Source: Methanobacteriota archaeon (GTDB lineage: Archaea > Methanobacteriota > Methanobacteria > Methanobacteriales > Methanobacteriaceae). Taken from it: a DNA stretch of 64,000 nucleotides. Shown piece by piece: positions 1 through 62,989 of this stretch (position 1 is the stretch's first letter; every line of letters begins with the position of its first letter). Position numbers and translations under genes: made by a program. The notes beneath the pieces were generated by a model. It made no database searches, was not told the DNA's origin, and saw only the letters and a list, made by a program, of their open reading frames with translations. The stretch is taken from assembly GCA_963787255.1 (NCBI GenBank), contig CAWBCJ010000029.1, positions 704,001 to 768,000 of the forward strand. The letters are read 5' to 3'.

Positions 1-710
1 GAACGAGTAAAAGAAGACATAGAAATGGTAATGTTAAGAGATCCGGCTGCAAGAAGCAAGTTAGAAATATTTTTTACATATCCTGGACTTCACGCCATAT
101 GGCTTTATAAAATAGCTAACTGGTTATGGATTCGCAATCATCATTTTTACCGGTGGCTTAATTTCGGCTATTACTCGCTTTTTTACAGGAATAGAGATAC
201 ATCCTGGAGCAAAAATAGGAAGAAGAGTATTCATCGACCACGGAATGGGTGTCGTAATTGGAGAAACTGCAGAAGTTGGAGATGATGTTTTAATTTATCA
301 GGGTGTTGTTCTGGGTGGAACAAGCCTTGGAAAGGAAAAAAAGGCACCCTACCATTGGAAGTGGGGTTGTAATAGGTTCTGGAGCTAAAGTTATTGGTAA
401 TATTGAAATAGGAGACTGCTCGAAGATAGGAGCAGGTTCTGTAGTCTTAAAATCAGCTCCAATGGGGTCTACAGTTGTTGGAATTCCTGGACGAAATGTA
501 AAAGAAGAGCGTAAATGCGCTATAGATCTGGATCATGGAGAGTTACCAGATCCTGTTGCAGAAGTGATTAAACTTATTTTAGACCGCCAAGATGAAATGG
601 AAAGCCAGATAAGAGCATTAGGAATATCAACATCTACCATAAAAATGAATGAACTTTTTGAGAGAAAATCAGAAATTGAAGAAATATTCTCAGAAGGTGC
701 AGGCATATAA
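1..710 (+). CDS. cysE: Serine O-acetyltransferase; 5' end outside window, two apparent frameshifts (~147, ~329)
   Basis: Stitched frames give [58 protein letters not shown], typical of CysE hexapeptide-repeat acetyltransferases. Confidence 0.9.
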
Positions 711-843
711 TATCATTTTTTTATTTTATTAGTAATTATATTAGCCTTAAAATTACATTTTAAGTTCATAAATTAGCTTTAAAACATAAATAAACAGTAA
801 TAAACTAAAATTTAATAAAATAATGTAAGCAAAAAAATATAAG

Positions 844-867
844 TTAATATAACACTAGTTATATTAA
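844..867. promoter_or_regulatory. Palindromic operator TTAATATAAC-acta-GTTATATTAA upstream of the HTH regulator
   Basis: Perfect 10-bp inverted arms; core TAAC-N4-GTTA at 850-861 matches motif repeated upstream of sulfur genes. Confidence 0.75.
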
Positions 868-966
868 TTCAATTTAAAGAGTTTATTTAAATTTTACAAA
901 TTCAGTTTAAAAGAGGGAAATAATCAATTGATAACATTTAAATTTCCAAATTATAATTAAACGGGC

Positions 967-1404
967 GTGATAGAAGTGAGACCACCATGTGAAATAGTTG
1001 TATGGTACGTAATTCCAAGTATACGGTCTGAATTGGCTAAAGAATTACTTAATTTAGGTATGAAACAAAAACAAATTTCTGAACTGCTGGATATTACTCA
1101 ACCTGCAGTATCACAGTATATAAGTGATAAAAGGGGACACGGAATTAAATTTGATGAAAATACTCAAAACATGATCAAAACTTTTGCAAGAGATTTAATG
1201 GAACAAAATCTGGAACAAGGGAGATGTAATACGCGAATATGTGAGATATGCAAGCACGTTAAAGCAGAAGAGGTTGTATGTCAACTGCATAAAGAAAAAG
1301 ATAACATTCCTGCAGGTTGTAATGCATGTATGGGATCAAAAAGGAATATAGATACCTGGATTACTGTATCTAATGGGTTCTTTTCTATTTATCCTCTAAA
1401 TTGA
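967..1404 (+). CDS. Cys-rich HTH transcriptional regulator (COG2522-like); true stop may be 1373 (..DYCI*) if the 3' end is frameshifted
   Basis: PPCE N-terminus, XRE-like HTH (MKQKQISELLDITQPAVSQYI), C-terminal CEIC..CQLH..CNAC cluster. Confidence 0.8.
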   Translation: MIEVRPPCEIVVWYVIPSIRSELAKELLNLGMKQKQISELLDITQPAVSQYISDKRGHGIKFDENTQNMIKTFARDLMEQNLEQGRCNTRICEICKHVKAEEVVCQLHKEKDNIPAGCNACMGSKRNIDTWITVSNGFFSIYPLN

Positions 1405-2768
1405 TGCCTAATATCTCTTAATCTGCTTCTTATTTCATCTGCAAGCTCATAATTCTTATTTTCACGGAGCTTTTCCCTTACATCAACCAGAATATTGACT
1501 AATTCATCATTGCGAATCTCCTTTGCAGGATTCAACTGAAAAATTAAGTCCCAAAATATCTCCGAATTCATTAAGTAATTCTTTTATTTCTTTAAATACA
1601 TTTTTAGAGATATTTTCTTCACTTATTCCTTTATTTATTTCTCTTATGAAATTAAAAAGTGCTGAAAGTGCAATAGGTGTATTAAAATCATTATCCATTG
1701 CATCCAAGAATTCATTTTTGGTATTTTCCAGCATTTTAAGGTATTCATTATTAGAATCACTATTTTTAGTTATATCCATTTCAAGGAATTCATCAACAGT
1801 TTCCATTAATTTATAAATTCTTTTCAAGCTATTCTGTGACTGCTGTAGAGCTTCATCGCTGAAGTCAATTGGACTTCTGTAATGAGTGGAAAGAACAAAA
1901 AATCTAAAGACCTGCGGGTCATATTCAGTGAGTAATTCTTCAATTGTAATAAAATTTCCAAGTGATTTGGACATTTTCTCCCCGCTGACATTTAAAAAGC
2001 CCGTATGCATCCAGTATTTAACCATTGGCTTTTTACCTGTTGCAGATTCCATCTGCGCGATTTCTGCCTCATGATGCGGGAAAATAAGATCTAATCCTCC
2101 ACCGTGAATGTCAAATTGGCCTCCAAAATAGGTTTCAGATATTGCAGTGTCTTCAATGTGCCATCCCGGTCTTCCATCGTCCCCATGGAGAAGCCCATGA
2201 TGGTTTGTCATCTCTCTTTTTCCAGAGTGCAAAATCTCCAGGATTTCTTTTTGTAGTATCTGGATTAACTCGATGAACATTTAGGTCTTCAATATTTCTA
2301 TTTGAGAGCTTTCCAAAGTCTTCAAAACGAGATTCATCAAAATAAATGCCAGTTGGAGGTTTCATAGGCAAAACTTTTCTTTATCAATGTTTGAATTTGA
2401 TTAATAATTTCGTTAAGGTGTTCCAGTGCCCTTGCATAATAATTAACGTTAGTTACACCTAATAATTCCATATCATGGAAATAGAGTTCTTCAAATTCCT
2501 TAGCAAGTTTTAATGGTTCAACACCAAGTTCATTTGCTCTTTTAATGATTTTATCGTCAATATCAGTGATATTTTGTAAATAAAAAATGCTGTACCCTTT
2601 ATATTTTAGATATCTTGCAATAATATCAAAAGCAATATAGGTTCTTCCATGACCAATATGTGATTTATCGTAAACTGTTGGCCCACATACAAACATTTTT
2701 ATTCTGTTTTCGTTTATAGGCGTGAATTCTTCCTTTTTACGGGTCATTGTATTGTATACTTTTATCAT
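1385..2768 (-). CDS. cysS: Cysteine--tRNA ligase, split by about four frameshifts
   Basis: Consecutive ORFs give CGPTVYD..HIGH, DFALWK, SPWG..GRPGWHIE, DIHGGGLDLIFPHHE, KMSKS, ADEIR..L; restored frame ends GINLEDK* at 1385. Confidence 0.92.
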
Positions 2769-3137: not shown

Positions 3138-3167
3138 AAATATATTTAATTGCGTTAGTTACTAAGT

Positions 3168-3185
3168 TAACAATTGTTATATAAA
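3168..3185 (-). promoter_or_regulatory. tRNA-Cys promoter: TATA box (TTTATATA) with operator TAACAATTGTTA immediately downstream
   Basis: Perfect 12-bp palindrome at 3168-3179 overlapping the downstream edge of the minus-strand TATA box at 3178-3185. Confidence 0.75.
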
Positions 3186-3332: not shown

Positions 3333-3350
3333 TTATAACAATTGTTATAA
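3333..3350. promoter_or_regulatory. Perfect 18-bp palindromic operator TTATAACAATTGTTATAA upstream of metY
   Basis: Exact palindrome about 20 bp downstream of TTTAAATA (3306-3313), i.e. near the expected transcription start. Confidence 0.8.
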
Positions 3351-9462: not shown

Positions 9463-9484
9463 AGTTAATCCTCGTCAATTTACT

Positions 9485-9518
9485 TAACAATAGTTATATA
9501 ACAATTGTTACTTATAAA
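9485..9518 (-). promoter_or_regulatory. Tandem operators TAACAATAGTTA (9485-9496) and TAACAATTGTTA (9499-9510) directly downstream of the thi4 TATA box
   Basis: Two copies at 14-bp spacing; minus-strand TTTATAAG at 9511-9518. Confidence 0.8.
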
Positions 9519-12110: not shown

Positions 12111-12201
12111 ATTTTCCTCCTTATTCTATAAACATTAAGATTCAACTTTTAAAAAATTCGTATTTAACTCCTGTGGATTTTAAAAAAGCAACATGTTATA
12201 T

Positions 12202-12227
12202 TAACAATTGTTATATAACTATTGTTA
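12202..12227. promoter_or_regulatory. Tandem operators TAACAATTGTTA and TAACTATTGTTA upstream of the transsulfuration gene
   Basis: Copies at 12202-12213 and 12216-12227, same 14-bp spacing as at thi4; partial third copy at ~12189-12199. Confidence 0.8.
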
Positions 12228-12261
12228 TATGTTTTTCGGTTTTTAAACTCTAAATTAAATT

Positions 12262-51669: not shown

Positions 51670-52440
51670 TTAAATCTCAATATTTTCTACGTCCTCTAAA
51701 ACTTCCCCATTCCTTACTCTATCCCTTAAATTGAGCATTAACTCATCAATTTTGTTTAATTTTCTTGACATGAGTTTTTCTTTTTCGCTGGTGATTAAGA
51801 CATTTCGCATGCCTCCATTTTTCATGACAATTCTTTTATCGGTCATAAGGGCGAGTACGGGGTCATGTGTTACAACCATTACTATTTTCCCATGCCCTGC
51901 AAGCGCTTTTAGAGCATCATGCTTTCTTATACCTGCGTTTTCGATTTCATCAATAAGAACAATTGGAGAATTACTTATAATTGCCACGTCAGCTACCATT
52001 AGCGCTCTGGACTGTCCGCCGCTTAATATTGTGAGGTCGTGATCTTTTTTTATTGGCTCGCCGGTTAGAGTGTTTGCAAGGTCAACTACGGCATTAACAC
52101 ATTTGTTGCTTGCACCGCGGCATTTTGCATGGAGATTTAAAAAATCCCCCACGCTCATATCTGCTAAAAAATTCATGTTTTGAGAAAGCTGCGCAACCAT
52201 TTTCTTTCTGGGATTAGTCCGGTCATCGTAACTTGGTTCTTTGCCGTCTACAAGGATTTTTCTCCTTGAAAAGGTGTCTTCCTGTGCGAGTTGTTCAATA
52301 TCCGCTATAAGTGAGCTTTTACCACTTCCTGTAGGACCTACAACTCCGAAAATTTCTCCTTTTTTGACTATAACTTTCTCAACAGGTTCTTTGTCCCCTT
52401 GTTTGTCGTAACCGCCGAGAATGGTTATTTCTTCTATCAT
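51670..52440 (-). CDS. Orphan ABC-type ATPase
   Basis: [22 protein letters not shown]; no adjacent permease. Confidence 0.85.
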
Positions 52441-53213
52441 TAAAGGTCCACCTTTCCTAAAGTGTCTCCCCTAAGCCCTCGTCTCATTGTTTCAAGGGCA
52501 GTTACCTCTTCTGGAGCTATATTACCCAAATTAACATTTGCTCCAAATTTTAAAATTAAATACATCTGCTGATTTTTGAGAGGTGCTTCCCAAATCAGTT
52601 TTTTCCCATCTATTTTTGCGAGCGCTTCAAGTTCATCTTCTTTGACGTTTCCAGCACCATCATAAATACCAATATCTTTTCCGCCTTCGCGTGCTTCAAT
52701 TAGCACTCTGTCCGCTCCAGCATCTATGTCCAAATTAATCAGATCTACACGATCTTCTATATCCAGTTTACCATCTTCAAATGGATCTTTTTTTCCAACT
52801 TCTGAAATAACTAAAAATCCCTGTTCTTTTGCTTTGGAAATGGAAGCTATTCTATCTTCAGGAGATATATTTATAGAGCCATCTGATATTTCAACAGCTT
52901 TAAATCCTAATTTATCAGCTTCATTTAAGAATTCATCGAATTTATTTTTTAAATATGCAAGTTCAAAAAGTGTTCCGCCAGGATATGGGATCACATCATA
53001 GGACAAATACATTTCTGTTTTGTTTTTTATAAGATCTCTGTCATGAAGTGCGGAAGTACCCCATCCAAATTTAGCAAGATCAATAAATTCACCAGATACT
53101 TCCATTAAGTCGTTCACGGCATTTAAACCCATTCCTTTATCTAACATCATTGTTATTCCATTTTTACGAGGTTTAGAAATTCTATCTGGTGCAATAAAGT
53201 TAAATGCTTTCAT
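52440..53213 (-). CDS. comA: Phosphosulfolactate synthase (coenzyme M biosynthesis)
   Basis: [62 protein letters not shown]. Confidence 0.93.
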
Positions 53214-53303: not shown

Positions 53304-53323
53304 TATATAAAATTTGTTATATA
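53304..53323. promoter_or_regulatory. Degenerate operator copy TATA-TAAAATTTGTTA-TATA between comA and the divergent gene
   Basis: One arm mismatch to TAAC-N4-GTTA; overlaps TATA-like sequence. Confidence 0.4.
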
Positions 53324-58833: not shown

Positions 58834-61539
58834 ATGTCTAACCAGCTTGAAGAACTTGGATATACTAAAAAAACATGTATTACTTGTGGAAACGATTTCT
58901 GGTCTATTGGAGATAGAAAAACTTGTGGTGACGCCCCATGCGATGAATATGAATTCATTGGGAATCCTGCAACAAGTAAAAAATATGACCTTTATGAAAT
59001 TCAGAAGACTTTCATGGAATTTTTTGCCGAAAAAGGCCACACACCAATAAAAAGATATCCTGTTCTTGCAAAAAGATGGAGAGACGACGTTTTTTTAGTA
59101 GGCGCATCAATTTACGATTTTCAACCATGGGTCACATCAGGAGCAGTAGATCCTCCTGCAAACCCATTAGTAATCGCACAACCATCAATTAGACTTAATG
59201 ATGTGGATAATGTCGGAAGGACCGGCAGGCACATGACTTGTTTTACAATGGGTGGACATCACGCATTTAATTCTCCTAAAGAACAAATTTACTGGGAAGA
59301 TGAAACAGTAAAATACTGTCATGACTTTATTAAACACATTGGAATCAACCCAGAAGAAATTACTTACATTGAATCATGGTGGGAAGGCGGAGGAAACGCA
59401 GGTCCCTGTTATGAAATTTGTGTTAGAGGGGTAGAATTAGCAACACTTGTTTTTATAAAATACAAAACACTTCCTGGCGGAAAACTTGAAGAAATCCCTC
59501 TTACGATTGTTGACACTGGATACGGGCTTGAAAGATTTGCTTGGATATCGCAGGGAACTCCAACAGCTTATGATGCTTCATTTGGTCCAGTAATAAATGA
59601 ATTAAAGGATTTATCTGGTATTGAAGTGAATGAAAGCATTCTTGCTGAAAACGCCCAGGTAGCTGGAATGATGGACATTGAAACTTTCGCAGACTTAAGA
59701 GAGTTAAGGAAAAAGGTTGCTGAAAGGCTTAATATAACACTTGATGAACTTGAAGAAGCTACAAAGCCAATGGAAGCAATATATGTAATTGCAGACCATA
59801 CAAGATGTCTGGCATTTATGCTTGCAGATGGTGTAATTCCATCCAACGTTAAAGAAGGATATCTGGCAAGACTCGTTTTAAGAAGAACAATTCGTTTCAT
59901 AAAAGACTTAGGATTAGAAGAATCATTAGCAGATATGATGAAAATACAGCTTGATTTCTTATCAAAAACTTATCCTGAAATTAAGCATCATCAAGATCAT
60001 ATACTTAATATTATCAATTTAGAAGATAAGAGATACCTTAAAACAGTTTCAAAGGGCAGAAAACTTGTAAAAACGACAATAAAACAGCTTAAAAAACAGA
60101 ATAAAGATGAAATACCTCTTGAAACACTTATAAAACTTTATGATTCTCATGGAATCCCTCCAGAAACCATTAATGAGATTGCAGCAGAAAACAATTTCAA
60201 AGCAGAAGTTCCTGATAATTTTTATACATTAGTTGCAAATGAGCATGCAGAAGAAGTTCAAGAAGAAAAAGAGGAAATAAAGCTTAATTTTCCCCTTACA
60301 GATTTATTATTCTATGAAAAGCCTTATGATACACAATTTGAAGCTCATGTAATTGGAACTTATGAAAATAACGTTATATTGGACCAGACTATTTTCTATC
60401 CTGAAGGAGGAGGGCAGCCGTCAGATATTGGATTCCTTTCCATTCGCGGTGAAAAAATAAAGGTTCTTCATGCTGAAAAGATAAATAATATTGTTTTACA
60501 CAAGGTAAACGAAGAAGATATTGAAAAAGTGCACCCTTATAAAGGCCAGATAATAAATGGGCAAATTGATCTTAGAAGGCGCCAGGCTCTTACTAGGAAC
60601 CATACTGCAACTCATTTAATAATTGCTGCTGCAAGAAAGGTTTTAGGCGACCATGTATGGCAGGCAGGGGCTCAAAAAGGTGTTAAAAGGTCAAGAATTG
60701 ATATTTCCCATTACAAACGGATAAAACCTGAAGAACTTCAGGAGATTGAACTTCTTGCAAATAGATATGTTATGGAAAATCGCAGTGTGCTTACTAACTG
60801 GATGGCCAGGGCAGAAGCCGAGAAAAAATATGGATTTATCCTTTACCAGGGCGGAGTAGTTCCAGGAATGTCTATAAGAACAGTAAAAATTGAAGATGTT
60901 GATGTGCAGGCCTGTGCAGGAACACATTGTTCAATGACGGGAGATATTGGGCTTATTAAGATTACCAAAACTGAAAGAATTCAGGACGGGGTGGAAAGGA
61001 TTGAATTTTCAGCGGGCGAAGCCGCAATTGAGGCTGCTCAGTCTAAAGATAATCTTTTAAAAGAAAGCGCCGCAGTTTTCAAGGTTGAACCAGAACAGCT
61101 CCCTAAAACCTGTGATAGATTCTTCAGTGAGTGGAAATCATTTAAAAATGAAATAAATAGACTTAAGGGTCAGATAGCAACATTAAAGATGAAAACTTTA
61201 ATGGGCAAATCCGAAAAAATTGGTGATCTAAATGTTTTAGAAGACATGATTGATGCAGATATAGGTGAAATGCAAAAAATGGCTTTAGACCTCACTGATG
61301 ATGACGGAGAGTTTGACGTGGTTCTTCTAGGTAATTTAGAAGGTAAAATAGTAGGAACTTCCTCTGCCCATGCAATAGAATATGGTATTAAAATTAATGA
61401 AATAATTAAAGAGGCTGCAACTATTCTTGGTGGTGGAGGTGGCGGAAGACCTAATCTTGCCCAAGGTGCGGGTCCAAAATCCGAAAAGATGAGAGAAGCA
61501 CTTGATTTTTCATTAGACAAAATTAAAGCTAAGTTCTAA
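58834..61539 (+). CDS. alaS: Alanine--tRNA ligase (archaeal type)
   Basis: N-terminal Zn motif CITC..CGDAPC, VGRTGRH, DTGYGLER, ADHTR, HTATH, CAGTH editing site, GGGGGG. Confidence 0.97.
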   Translation: MSNQLEELGYTKKTCITCGNDFWSIGDRKTCGDAPCDEYEFIGNPATSKKYDLYEIQKTFMEFFAEKGHTPIKRYPVLAKRWRDDVFLVGASIYDFQPWVTSGAVDPPANPLVIAQPSIRLNDVDNVGRTGRHMTCFTMGGHHAFNSPKEQIYWEDETVKYCHDFIKHIGINPEEITYIESWWEGGGNAGPCYEICVRGVELATLVFIKYKTLPGGKLEEIPLTIVDTGYGLERFAWISQGTPTAYDASFGPVINELKDLSGIEVNESILAENAQVAGMMDIETFADLRELRKKVAERLNITLDELEEATKPMEAIYVIADHTRCLAFMLADGVIPSNVKEGYLARLVLRRTIRFIKDLGLEESLADMMKIQLDFLSKTYPEIKHHQDHILNIINLEDKRYLKTVSKGRKLVKTTIKQLKKQNKDEIPLETLIKLYDSHGIPPETINEIAAENNFKAEVPDNFYTLVANEHAEEVQEEKEEIKLNFPLTDLLFYEKPYDTQFEAHVIGTYENNVILDQTIFYPEGGGQPSDIGFLSIRGEKIKVLHAEKINNIVLHKVNEEDIEKVHPYKGQIINGQIDLRRRQALTRNHTATHLIIAAARKVLGDHVWQAGAQKGVKRSRIDISHYKRIKPEELQEIELLANRYVMENRSVLTNWMARAEAEKKYGFILYQGGVVPGMSIRTVKIEDVDVQACAGTHCSMTGDIGLIKITKTERIQDGVERIEFSAGEAAIEAAQSKDNLLKESAAVFKVEPEQLPKTCDRFFSEWKSFKNEINRLKGQIATLKMKTLMGKSEKIGDLNVLEDMIDADIGEMQKMALDLTDDDGEFDVVLLGNLEGKIVGTSSAHAIEYGIKINEIIKEAATILGGGGGGRPNLAQGAGPKSEKMREALDFSLDKIKAKF

Positions 61540-61676
61540 TGAATTAGTTTTTTAATTTTTAAATATCATTTCTTTTTAATTCTTATTGAATTTTAATCCT
61601 TAAAATTCCTTTTTTCATGTTAATAAACTAGATATATTATGATCTAAATAAATTTAATAGATTATTAGAAAACAAG

Positions 61677-61696
61677 TTTATATAACAATAGTTATA
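61677..61696 (+). promoter_or_regulatory. TATA box overlapped by operator TATAACAATAGTTATA upstream of the marker-16 gene
   Basis: TTTATATA 61677-61684; core TAACAATAGTTA 61683-61694, identical to the copy at 9485. Confidence 0.78.
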
Positions 61697-61729
61697 AATT
61701 TCAAGATATGATGATTACGGAGGAATTTT

Positions 61730-62989
61730 TTGAATATCCGCTCAATTGAAGAAATTAACCATAAAATTGAAAGAGGAGAAGCAACAGTTCTCACAGCAGA
61801 AGAAGTCAGTGACCTTGTTAGGAATGGGAAAGAGCCAAATGCAGAAGATATCGATGTTATAACTACAGGAACATGTGGAATAATGTCCGGAACAGCAGCG
61901 ATATTCCACGTAAAAGCAGGGGAACCAGGATCATTTAAAAAAGCCAAAAGCGTGCATTTAAATGGAGTACCAGGATTTCCAGGCCCATGTCCAAACGAAT
62001 GGCTTGGATCAGTTGACATGATGGTTTATGGAACAGCCCACAGTATTTACGATGAAGATTACGGTGGAGGATTTTTATTTAAGGATATTGTTTCTGGAAA
62101 AGACATAGAAATTGAGGTAGAATCTATAAACGGCGAAAAAATAAAATCAACAGTTAATATAGGTGATTTCGGATCAGCAAGAATGATTGGAACTCGTTTA
62201 GCGTTTAAAAATTACACTGCATTCCTGAACCCTAATAATGAACCTGTTGCATCAATATTCAATGCAATAGAAATGGAAGGGCCTTATAGGGGACTTTCAT
62301 TTTCAGGTTGCGGGGAATTAAATCCTTTACAAAACGATCCAGTAATGAATACCATAAAGACAGGCACTAAAGTACTTATGTGCGGCTCAGAAGGAATGGT
62401 AATTGGGAATGGAACAAGAAGCACTCCAGAAAAGCCAAATTTAATGATTTCTGCTGATATGTACGATATGGATCCTCATTTCCTTGGTGGATTTAAAACT
62501 GCTGCAGGACCGGAAGTTTTCAATAGCGTAGCTGCGGCAATTCCTGTTTTAAATGATGAGATCTTGAAAAACACTTATATCAAAAATGAAGATATTCCAC
62601 TCCCTATTGCAGATATAAGGGGAAGACACTTGCCTCTAGGCTCTACAAATTATGCCGAAGTTTGGGGAGATGTAGATGAACGGCCAATTTATTATCTAGA
62701 AGAATGTAGAAACTGTGAAGTGTGTATTGTGCGTGAAAGATGTCCTACAGGAGCGTACAATAAAACTCTAAATGTAAAAAGATGTTTTGGCTGTGGAATG
62801 TGTGCTTATTCCTGTCCTTACGGTGCATTTGAAATGAAACGCGGTAAAATTAAGTTTAAAGTTGAAGACAGACTCATTGATGTTCCTGTTATATGTCGTC
62901 AATCTGATATTAAAAGAGCACGTGAATTAGCTAATGATCTTAAAAAGAGAGTTCTTGAAGGAAAATTTTCGATTTCAAAATGTTATTGA
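61730..62989 (+). CDS. Methanogenesis marker 16 metalloprotein (DUF39/COG1900 + 2x[4Fe-4S]); reported as coenzyme M synthase (ComF-type)
   Basis: DVITTGT.G.MSGT, GPCPNE.LG.VD, YGGGFLF, SGCGELNP.QNDP, GTRS; C-terminal CxxCxxC..CP and CFGCGMCAYSCP; GGAGG RBS with TTG start. Confidence 0.82.
   Translation: MNIRSIEEINHKIERGEATVLTAEEVSDLVRNGKEPNAEDIDVITTGTCGIMSGTAAIFHVKAGEPGSFKKAKSVHLNGVPGFPGPCPNEWLGSVDMMVYGTAHSIYDEDYGGGFLFKDIVSGKDIEIEVESINGEKIKSTVNIGDFGSARMIGTRLAFKNYTAFLNPNNEPVASIFNAIEMEGPYRGLSFSGCGELNPLQNDPVMNTIKTGTKVLMCGSEGMVIGNGTRSTPEKPNLMISADMYDMDPHFLGGFKTAAGPEVFNSVAAAIPVLNDEILKNTYIKNEDIPLPIADIRGRHLPLGSTNYAEVWGDVDERPIYYLEECRNCEVCIVRERCPTGAYNKTLNVKRCFGCGMCAYSCPYGAFEMKRGKIKFKVEDRLIDVPVICRQSDIKRARELANDLKKRVLEGKFSISKCY

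Follow-up and report, generated by a model that had tools for sequence, protein, structure and literature searches.

A palindromic site at the methanogenesis marker-16 promoter as a candidate operator of a sulfur regulon in Methanobacteriaceae

Introduction

The gene for methanogenesis marker 16 in a genome of the family Methanobacteriaceae is preceded by a 16-nucleotide (nt) near-palindrome of the form TATAAC-N4-GTTATA, which recurs about 49 kb away in an island of sulfur-assimilation genes. Could one protein, acting at the same sequence, control both? The locus lies in a stretch of 64,000 nt (positions 704001–768000 of contig C29, called the window below) of an assembly of 2.47 Mb, 29 contigs and 33% G+C. 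The question has a biochemical side. According to PMC12068725, the M. acetivorans protein of this family, MMP16, is the main coenzyme M (CoM) synthase and is essential without sulfide; the proposed role of marker 16, conversion of sulfoacetaldehyde to coenzyme M, rests there on genetics in that organism.

The evidence described below suggests that the palindrome at 61681–61696 functions as an operator within a conserved regulon of sulfur metabolism, with marker 16 under the shared control. A probability of roughly 0.7 is assigned to this reading. With the same degree of confidence, the shared control would span genes of cysteine, homocysteine, thiazole, Fe-S, sulfur-carrier and pyridoxal 5'-phosphate (PLP) metabolism.

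Results

The site at the marker-16 promoter

Positions 61681–61696 of the window (plus strand) read TATAACAATAGTTATA, one mismatch away from the palindrome TATAACAATTGTTATA, and the surrounding promoter stretch reads ...aaacaagTTTATATAACAATAGTTATAaatttcaagatatgatgattacGGAGGaattttTTG. The left arm of the site overlaps an octamer which we take to be the TATA box, and the A-rich heptamer directly before it is presumably the transcription factor B recognition element (BRE); both labels follow the archaeal promoter consensus. The site ends 34 nt before the TTG start codon at 61730. The upstream neighbour, alaS, is encoded on the same strand and ends at 61539; since the 190-nt spacer between the two genes is T-rich, the marker-16 gene should own a promoter. 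Both this promoter and the gene are intact in the assembly. A look through the indexed sequencing runs turned up none of RNA that covers the locus. The preliminary description, made from the letters of the window, had placed the site over the TATA box of the gene, and this overlap is visible in the sequence and conserved in the genus.

Statistics of the motif

In the window there is a single further exact copy of the focal 16-mer, on the minus strand at 12214–12229, 49.5 kb away. With up to three mismatches allowed on both strands, 22 matches at 14 positions were found in the window against 2.7 expected, and none of 100 shuffled sequences reached 22. Genome-wide, the palindrome occurs at two positions exactly, at five with one mismatch and at 15 with two. 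Three-mismatch matches number 139 in the whole genome, and low-complexity AT-rich intergenic DNA yields many of them. Taken alone, the core TAAC-N4-GTTA shows no genome-wide enrichment (77 found, about 94 expected); the signal therefore resides in the full 16-mer, and the core was discarded as a description of the motif.

The focal site was scored with a leave-one-out matrix of 16 columns, built from 15 other sites with the focal site excluded, and the reversed genome served as the control. The focal site scored 20.18 and ranked third genome-wide. Scores of 16 or more were obtained at 15 positions, namely 14 of the 15 training sites and the focal site, which is the sole untrained one; in the reversed genome no position reached 16, the maximum being 15.44. 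An iterated matrix of 24 nt drifted to AT-rich noise and was replaced by the fixed 16-nt version.

Conservation within the genus

Among 23 genomes of the genus, a marker-16 match was found in 22 and its upstream sequence could be obtained in 21. The palindrome is present at 18 of these 21 promoters: 14 with at most one mismatch, three with two mismatches and one with three (arms intact). All 18 site-anchored sequences differ from one another, and the site nevertheless stands out as a footprint, with 1.80 bits per column against 0.87 in the 40 nt upstream and 0.56 in the 24 nt downstream. The right arm GTTATA, which lies outside any TATA box, is essentially invariant, and the left arm is likewise nearly so. 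At the centre some species have AATA and others the complementary TATT, as is expected of a symmetric site bound by a dimer. Also conserved in the genus are a TTTA immediately 5' of the site and, some 10 nt farther upstream, an A-rich patch; together they fit a BRE/TATA pair.

The distance from the site to the start codon is 34–55 nt in 13 species and 153–259 nt in five. The greater distance is due to a block of hairpin-like repeats between the promoter and the ribosome-binding site. Such a block, about 100–210 nt long and composed of short hairpin-like modules, was seen in five or six species (L008:1275-1490; also L009, L010, L067, L072 and L079). Pieces of it recur in 7–13 copies per genome in each of five genomes tested, and the block is therefore regarded as a dispersed intergenic repeat, similar to miniature inverted-repeat transposable elements (MITE) or repetitive extragenic palindromes (REP), that stands outside the regulatory unit. 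A search of Rfam with seven marker-16 loci, including the repeat block, gave no match.

Other promoters with the motif

Twelve strict sites lie in a 25-kb island (C29:691–716 kb), half of which falls inside the window. Strong sites outside the island are limited to those of marker 16 and pdxS, 49 kb and 83 kb beyond the last island site; the motif is thus a dispersed signal and no local duplication, as had been proposed. High-scoring sites occur at no more than about 10 sulfur-related promoters, and the motif is both palindromic and over-represented. One of the strong sites falls between cysS and thiI. The features are collected in Table 1.

Table 1. Features of the marker-16 promoter and of the other motif-bearing promoters (window coordinates unless a contig is given; a dot marks features with no strand)
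Feature	Position	Strand	Remarks
Candidate regulator gene, N-terminal helix-turn-helix and cysteine-rich C-terminal part, about 130 amino acids (aa)	976..1404	+	start GTG 976
Methanogenesis marker-16 / ComF-type gene, COG1900 and ferredoxin domains, 419 aa	61730..62989	+	TIGR03287
Putative focal operator TATAACAATAGTTATA	61681..61696	.	1 mismatch against palindrome TATAACAATTGTTATA
TATA-like box TTTATATA	61677..61684	+	overlapped by left arm of the site
BRE-like A-rich stretch AACAAGT	61670-61676		directly 5' of the TATA-like box
Ribosome-binding site GGAGG	61719..61723	+	6 nt 5' of TTG start; 22 nt after the putative operator
Putative operator TATAACACTAGTTATA	848..863	.	about 110 nt 5' of the candidate regulator gene; possible autoregulation
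Putative operator	3166..3181	.	divergent intergenic region of cysS and metY-metX-nifS-nifU
Putative operator, perfect palindrome	3334..3349	.	161 nt 5' of metY
Two putative operators, 14 bp apart	9483..9512	.	centres 28 and 42 nt 5' of thi4
Two putative operators, 14 bp apart	12200..12229	.	5' of cystathionine gamma-synthase/lyase-type gene
Tandem putative operators	C29:691365-691394		5' of GMC-type FAD oxidoreductase, then ThiF/MoeB-type E1
Putative operator	island		5' of MoaD/SAMP-type sulfur carrier gene
Three putative operators	island		5' of cysK
Putative operator, perfect palindrome	C29:799154		65-74 nt 5' of pdxS (PLP synthase); same-genus relative likewise (L118:1492-1507)
Weak half-like site TATAAAATTTGTTATA	53306..53321	.	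between comA (52440-53213, minus) and a 187-aa gene

The thi4 product is a sulfide-dependent thiazole synthase, and its gene is followed by one with a MOSC domain. In the pair before the cystathionine gamma-synthase/lyase-type gene, the second site is identical to the focal 16-mer read on the opposite strand. From the site before pdxS, PLP supply appears to be co-regulated with PLP-dependent sulfur enzymes. Sites upstream of the candidate regulator gene recur elsewhere, at -113 and -86 in two genomes of the same genus and at -146 and -206 in another genus.

The centres of the sites are mostly 28–160 nt before start codons, and some lie farther away, to about 330 nt. At three promoters two sites are spaced exactly 14 bp apart with a common palindromic junction, GTTATATAAC. 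Arrays phased at 14 bp also occur in other genera, with four consecutive sites at G010:C22:156255-156312. This layout suggests cooperative binding of a multimer.

A full hdrC-hdrB-hdrA set directly follows the GMC and ThiF/MoeB-type genes on the same strand, with a gap of 110 nt before hdrC (C29:691.4–697.9 kb).

The candidate regulator

Among the island open reading frames (ORFs) screened, only one has a helix-turn-helix (HTH) hit. Its N-terminus is MRPPCEIVVWY, after correction of the start from homologues, which begin MRPPC. The match to PF01381 (HTH_3) is borderline, its 23.1 bits barely exceeding the cut-off of 23. The gene is present in a single copy in this genome and was found in 49 of 61 genomes of the family. 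The protein family is large, with 1348 clusters at E<=0.001 and 438 at E<=1e-10, mostly of about 120 aa and unnamed; its neighbours in the atlas are archaeal clusters labelled 'transcriptional regulator' or 'hypothetical', with HTH_3 in 41–50% of members. In an alignment of 75 sequences, C102, C115 and C118 are conserved in at least 90%, and members of the methanogen branch additionally have C5 and a CxxC.

The AlphaFold model contains six helices at a mean confidence (pLDDT) of 84.6. A Foldseek comparison of this model with the PDB gave nothing at E<=0.001, and a PDB sequence search gave nothing better than E 0.12. VIA-align placed the model closest to unrelated helical proteins (best Z 6.1), with Z of about 5 to HTH domains; the model thus permits no fold assignment beyond HTH. 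As for the Rrf2 family (IscR/CymR), no NCBIfam hit was obtained at E<=1e-5, and Pfam returned only HTH_3 and a sub-threshold HTH_5.

The occurrence of the motif was compared with that of the regulator by counting, per genome, matches to the pattern and to the reversed pattern as control. Nine of ten regulator-bearing genomes exceed the control (32/10, 23/4, 15/10, 18/5, 18/6, 32/8, 21/12, 19/4 and 26/10), and in the tenth (G025) the two counts are almost equal (19/17). No excess is seen in five genomes that lack the regulator (10/8, 9/12, 4/3, 2/2 and 18/14), and none of these five contains an exact palindrome. Among the eight regulator-bearing genomes whose sites were listed, 7 carry 2–6 exact palindromes and G040 carries none. 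Clusters of exact palindromes are frequent in the neighbourhood of the regulator gene, and in several genera the motif lies 5' of that gene. On these grounds the operator is reasonably likely to be bound by the HTH protein of the island.

The region around the regulator gene is disturbed in this assembly. Between C29:702.9 and 706.8 kb (window 1–2768 together with L001:18926-19926), the genes cysK (97 + 180 aa), cysE (94/98 + 135) and cysS (143 + 257) are split. The C-terminal tail of the regulator is altered here; a genome of the same genus has an intact cysE (237 aa), regulator (131 aa) and cysS (459 aa), and relative to it at least eight single-base insertions over about 2.4 kb are present in the genome described here (G000). 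The genes for HemA, a histidine kinase and an SsuA-like protein nearby also look fragmentary. Elsewhere in the assembly, contig C1 shares identical segments with contigs C2, C3 or C4, including a COG1900-CBS gene and its upstream DNA; these contigs are redundant, which fits a contamination of 4.6%.

The marker-16 gene and the genes of coenzyme M synthesis

The product of the marker-16 gene matches TIGR03287 (methan_mark_16) with 551.6 bits (cut-off 363.95), residues 20–415 covering model positions 1–391 of 391, and PF01837 (HcyBio, COG1900) with 339 bits. In the C-terminal part, PF00037 (Fer4, a 4Fe-4S ferredoxin domain) is matched at residues 348–367 with 22.9 bits against 21.1, other Fer4 models remaining below cut-off. 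Orthologues are present in all 61 family genomes. The sulfoacetaldehyde branch of CoM synthesis is encoded as well, by comA (TIGR03849, 329 bits), comD (TIGR03845, 214.5) and comB (TIGR00298, 249.5).

The sequence TATAAAATTTGTTATA, next to comA, was considered as a site of the regulon and rejected. Its matrix score is only 7.33, and it is kept in 13 of the 23 genomes of the genus, in which the flanks are equally conserved. The 187-aa gene on the other side of it encodes a pyruvate-kinase C-terminal-like domain.

Beyond the genus

Thirty marker-16 loci of the family were scored with the matrix. Three relatives of the same genus gave 20.2, 18.2 and 0.9. In a sister genus all three genomes contain (C/A)TAAACAATTGTTATA 147–192 nt upstream of marker 16, with scores of 10.6–11.0; these sites are suggestive at most, because the control, the reversed genome, yields 63 hits at that level. 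The other 23 family loci, two of them with shortened upstream sequence, score no more than 6.7. The preliminary description had named the promoters of orthologous genes as the place to look for the motif: within the genus it was found there in 18 of 21, with a footprint, whereas in other genera the scores do not exceed 11.0. With no significant marker-16 site outside the genus, membership of this gene in the regulon is explained by lineage-specific recruitment.

The remaining members are distributed more widely. A genome of another genus has exact palindromes before a ThiF-type gene, before the divergently transcribed cysK and cysE and before metY. Two further genomes have ThiI and a TusA/YedF-like gene among their motif-linked genes. 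A regulon sharing this motif, as had been claimed, is thus borne out in a second genus, where the motif precedes cysK/cysE, metY, the ThiF-type gene and a gshA-like gene. Judged by this distribution of sites, the putative sulfur regulon is older than the membership of marker 16.

In the same connection, a site with one mismatch lies 44 nt before a gene of the glutamate-cysteine ligase type (gshA-like) that adjoins the regulator gene (G047, L111:1492-2944). Its position hints that low-molecular-weight thiol synthesis could belong to the regulon in the genus of that genome.

Discussion

Proposed mechanism

In the proposed mechanism, a dimeric HTH protein, for which the gene at 976–1404 of the window is the best candidate, would bind both TATAAC arms, cooperatively on the 14-bp arrays. 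At the marker-16 promoter the bound protein would cover approximately -27 to -10, a stretch that reaches from the TATA box to some 10 nt short of the predicted transcription start. Given this span, it would exclude the TATA-binding protein (TBP) and transcription factor B (TFB), or RNA polymerase, and so repress marker 16. When usable sulfur becomes scarce, the protein would be released, perhaps via its cysteines, and marker 16 would be raised together with other sulfur-incorporating enzymes. Repression, not activation, is probable at this promoter. The odds are put at about even that the signal is the sulfur status of the cell, be it sulfide, cysteine or Fe-S, sensed perhaps by way of the conserved cysteines. 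Induction of marker 16 under sulfur limitation would be physiologically sensible, since the M. acetivorans protein is needed at low sulfide (PMC12068725).

A broader picture, somewhat less likely than not, can also be drawn. The family of small HTH proteins with a four-cysteine C-terminal module might be the master repressor of sulfur assimilation in Methanobacteriaceae, binding phased TATAAC-N4-GTTATA arrays, with cysteines that could sense Fe-S, a metal or persulfide; one genus would then have captured the CoM synthase gene, and supply of the terminal methanogenesis cofactor would directly follow the availability of sulfur.

Alternative explanations

That the focal sequence is a chance match in AT-rich intergenic DNA can be regarded as effectively refuted. 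Low-complexity AT-rich DNA does supply the 139 three-mismatch matches of the genome, yet only 7 positions match with at most one mismatch, the reversed genome never reaches the focal score, and the orthologous position is kept in 18 of 21 species despite diverged flanks. The palindrome could also be a shared flavour of core promoters, made of back-to-back TATA-like hexamers and recognized by no specific factor. The arms contain TATA, G+C content is low, and the site overlaps the presumed TATA box at both marker 16 and pdxS. This explanation is nonetheless very improbable: the C and G of TAAC...GTTA, like the right arm as a whole, fall outside a TATA box and are nevertheless invariant in 18 species; the sites stand in 14-bp phased arrays and at 28–330 nt from start codons; and the high scorers are confined to the sulfur-related promoters, with no excess in the five related genomes that lack the regulator. 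Taken together, these points make the focal sequence very probably a genuine regulatory site bound by a protein.

The identity of the factor and the direction of control are less firmly settled. The element could be real while the cysteine-rich HTH protein of the island is not its binder, or while the factor activates marker 16. The link to the regulator is drawn solely from co-location and co-occurrence, and several sites of the regulon lie 100–330 nt before start codons, from where archaeal factors can activate. Such an arrangement is unlikely, given that the regulator is encoded in a single copy and is the sole protein with an HTH hit among the island ORFs screened, that its own upstream region bears the motif in several genera, that an excess of the motif goes with the presence of the regulator gene in 14 of the 15 genomes tested, and that a site over the TATA box, as at marker 16, occupies the classical position of a repressor.

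Several observations weigh against a sulfur regulon that includes marker 16, and they are brought together here. Beyond this genus, marker 16 stands outside the regulon. Even in the genus, three of the 21 promoters are without the site (two retain degenerate remains in place, and the third has a different upstream neighbour), and control must therefore be dispensable. In the focal genome no operator was found at comB, at comD or at two COG1900-CBS (homocysteine-type) paralogues, where the best matches have 4–6 mismatches. The sites 161 and 329 nt before metY are far upstream and could mean activation at some promoters. The co-occurrence of motif and regulator supports their pairing but is confounded, as genomes without the regulator may lack the sulfur island too. 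Finally, the split cys genes and the altered tail of the regulator may indicate that the system is partly decayed or that the assembly is faulty.

Significance

If the palindrome is a working operator of the sulfur regulon, genome context would independently support marker 16 as a sulfur-incorporating enzyme, the demand for which rises when sulfide is scarce, in line with the published phenotype of M. acetivorans, which depends on sulfide. The preliminary description had gone further and taken the site as independent support for the role in CoM synthesis. Co-regulation fits a sulfur transfer, but it cannot alone single out the synthesis of CoM. A compact regulon of about 10 promoters would be defined, and a concrete regulator would be nominated from a widespread and unstudied family of archaeal proteins. 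The three species of the genus without the site would constitute a natural comparison. The promoters are also a possible source of sulfur-responsive parts for methanogen engineering.

Comparison with known systems

The marker-16 gene belongs to the same family as MMP16/ComF of M. acetivorans and MJ1681 (TIGR03287, COG1900 and ferredoxin), as treated in PMC12068725. A term search of that paper yielded no transcriptional regulator or operator of the marker-16 gene. The difference lies in the operator, which is confined here to one genus of Methanobacteriaceae. In open-access papers and preprints no description was found of transcriptional control of CoM synthesis, of a sulfur regulon or sulfur-sensing regulator in Methanobacteriales, or of this motif or the candidate regulator. 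Neither the regulator family nor a sulfur regulon of Methanobacteriaceae, nor the presence of a methanogenesis cofactor gene in such a regulon, thus appears to have been described; a regulon built of a repressor and its operators is in itself ordinary.

There is a likeness in layout to the nitrogen operators of methanogens. Their repressor, NrpR, binds GGAA-N6-TTCC and leaves the DNA in response to a metabolite, and some of its operators are in tandem. In both systems an inverted repeat stands on the TATA box, or immediately behind it, at a number of operons with related metabolic roles. They differ in the motif (TATAAC-N4-GTTATA here), in the protein family and in the nutrient sensed.

SurR of Thermococcales is another archaeal regulator tied to sulfur. 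It is a larger winged-helix protein that recognizes GTT-N3-AAC at hydrogenase and S0-reduction genes, and its cysteines are thought to act as the switch. The likeness consists in the connection with sulfur, in the cysteines and in a motif composed of GTT and AAC triplets. In the present 16-mer, however, the order is AAC-N4-GTT, and the junction of tandem sites reads GTT-N4-AAC, with a spacer of four and not three. The candidate protein of about 130 aa has an HTH of the XRE type and gave no hit to a SurR-like family.

In bacteria, CymR (Rrf2 family) and CysB control cysK, cysE, sulfur uptake and methionine genes as a regulon of sulfur status, and the grouping of cysteine and methionine genes into one sulfur regulon is shared with the system proposed here. 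The candidate regulator, in contrast, has no Rrf2 or LysR match and would act within an archaeal promoter architecture, on a putative regulon to which thi4, the ThiF/MoaD genes, pdxS and a methanogenesis cofactor gene are added.

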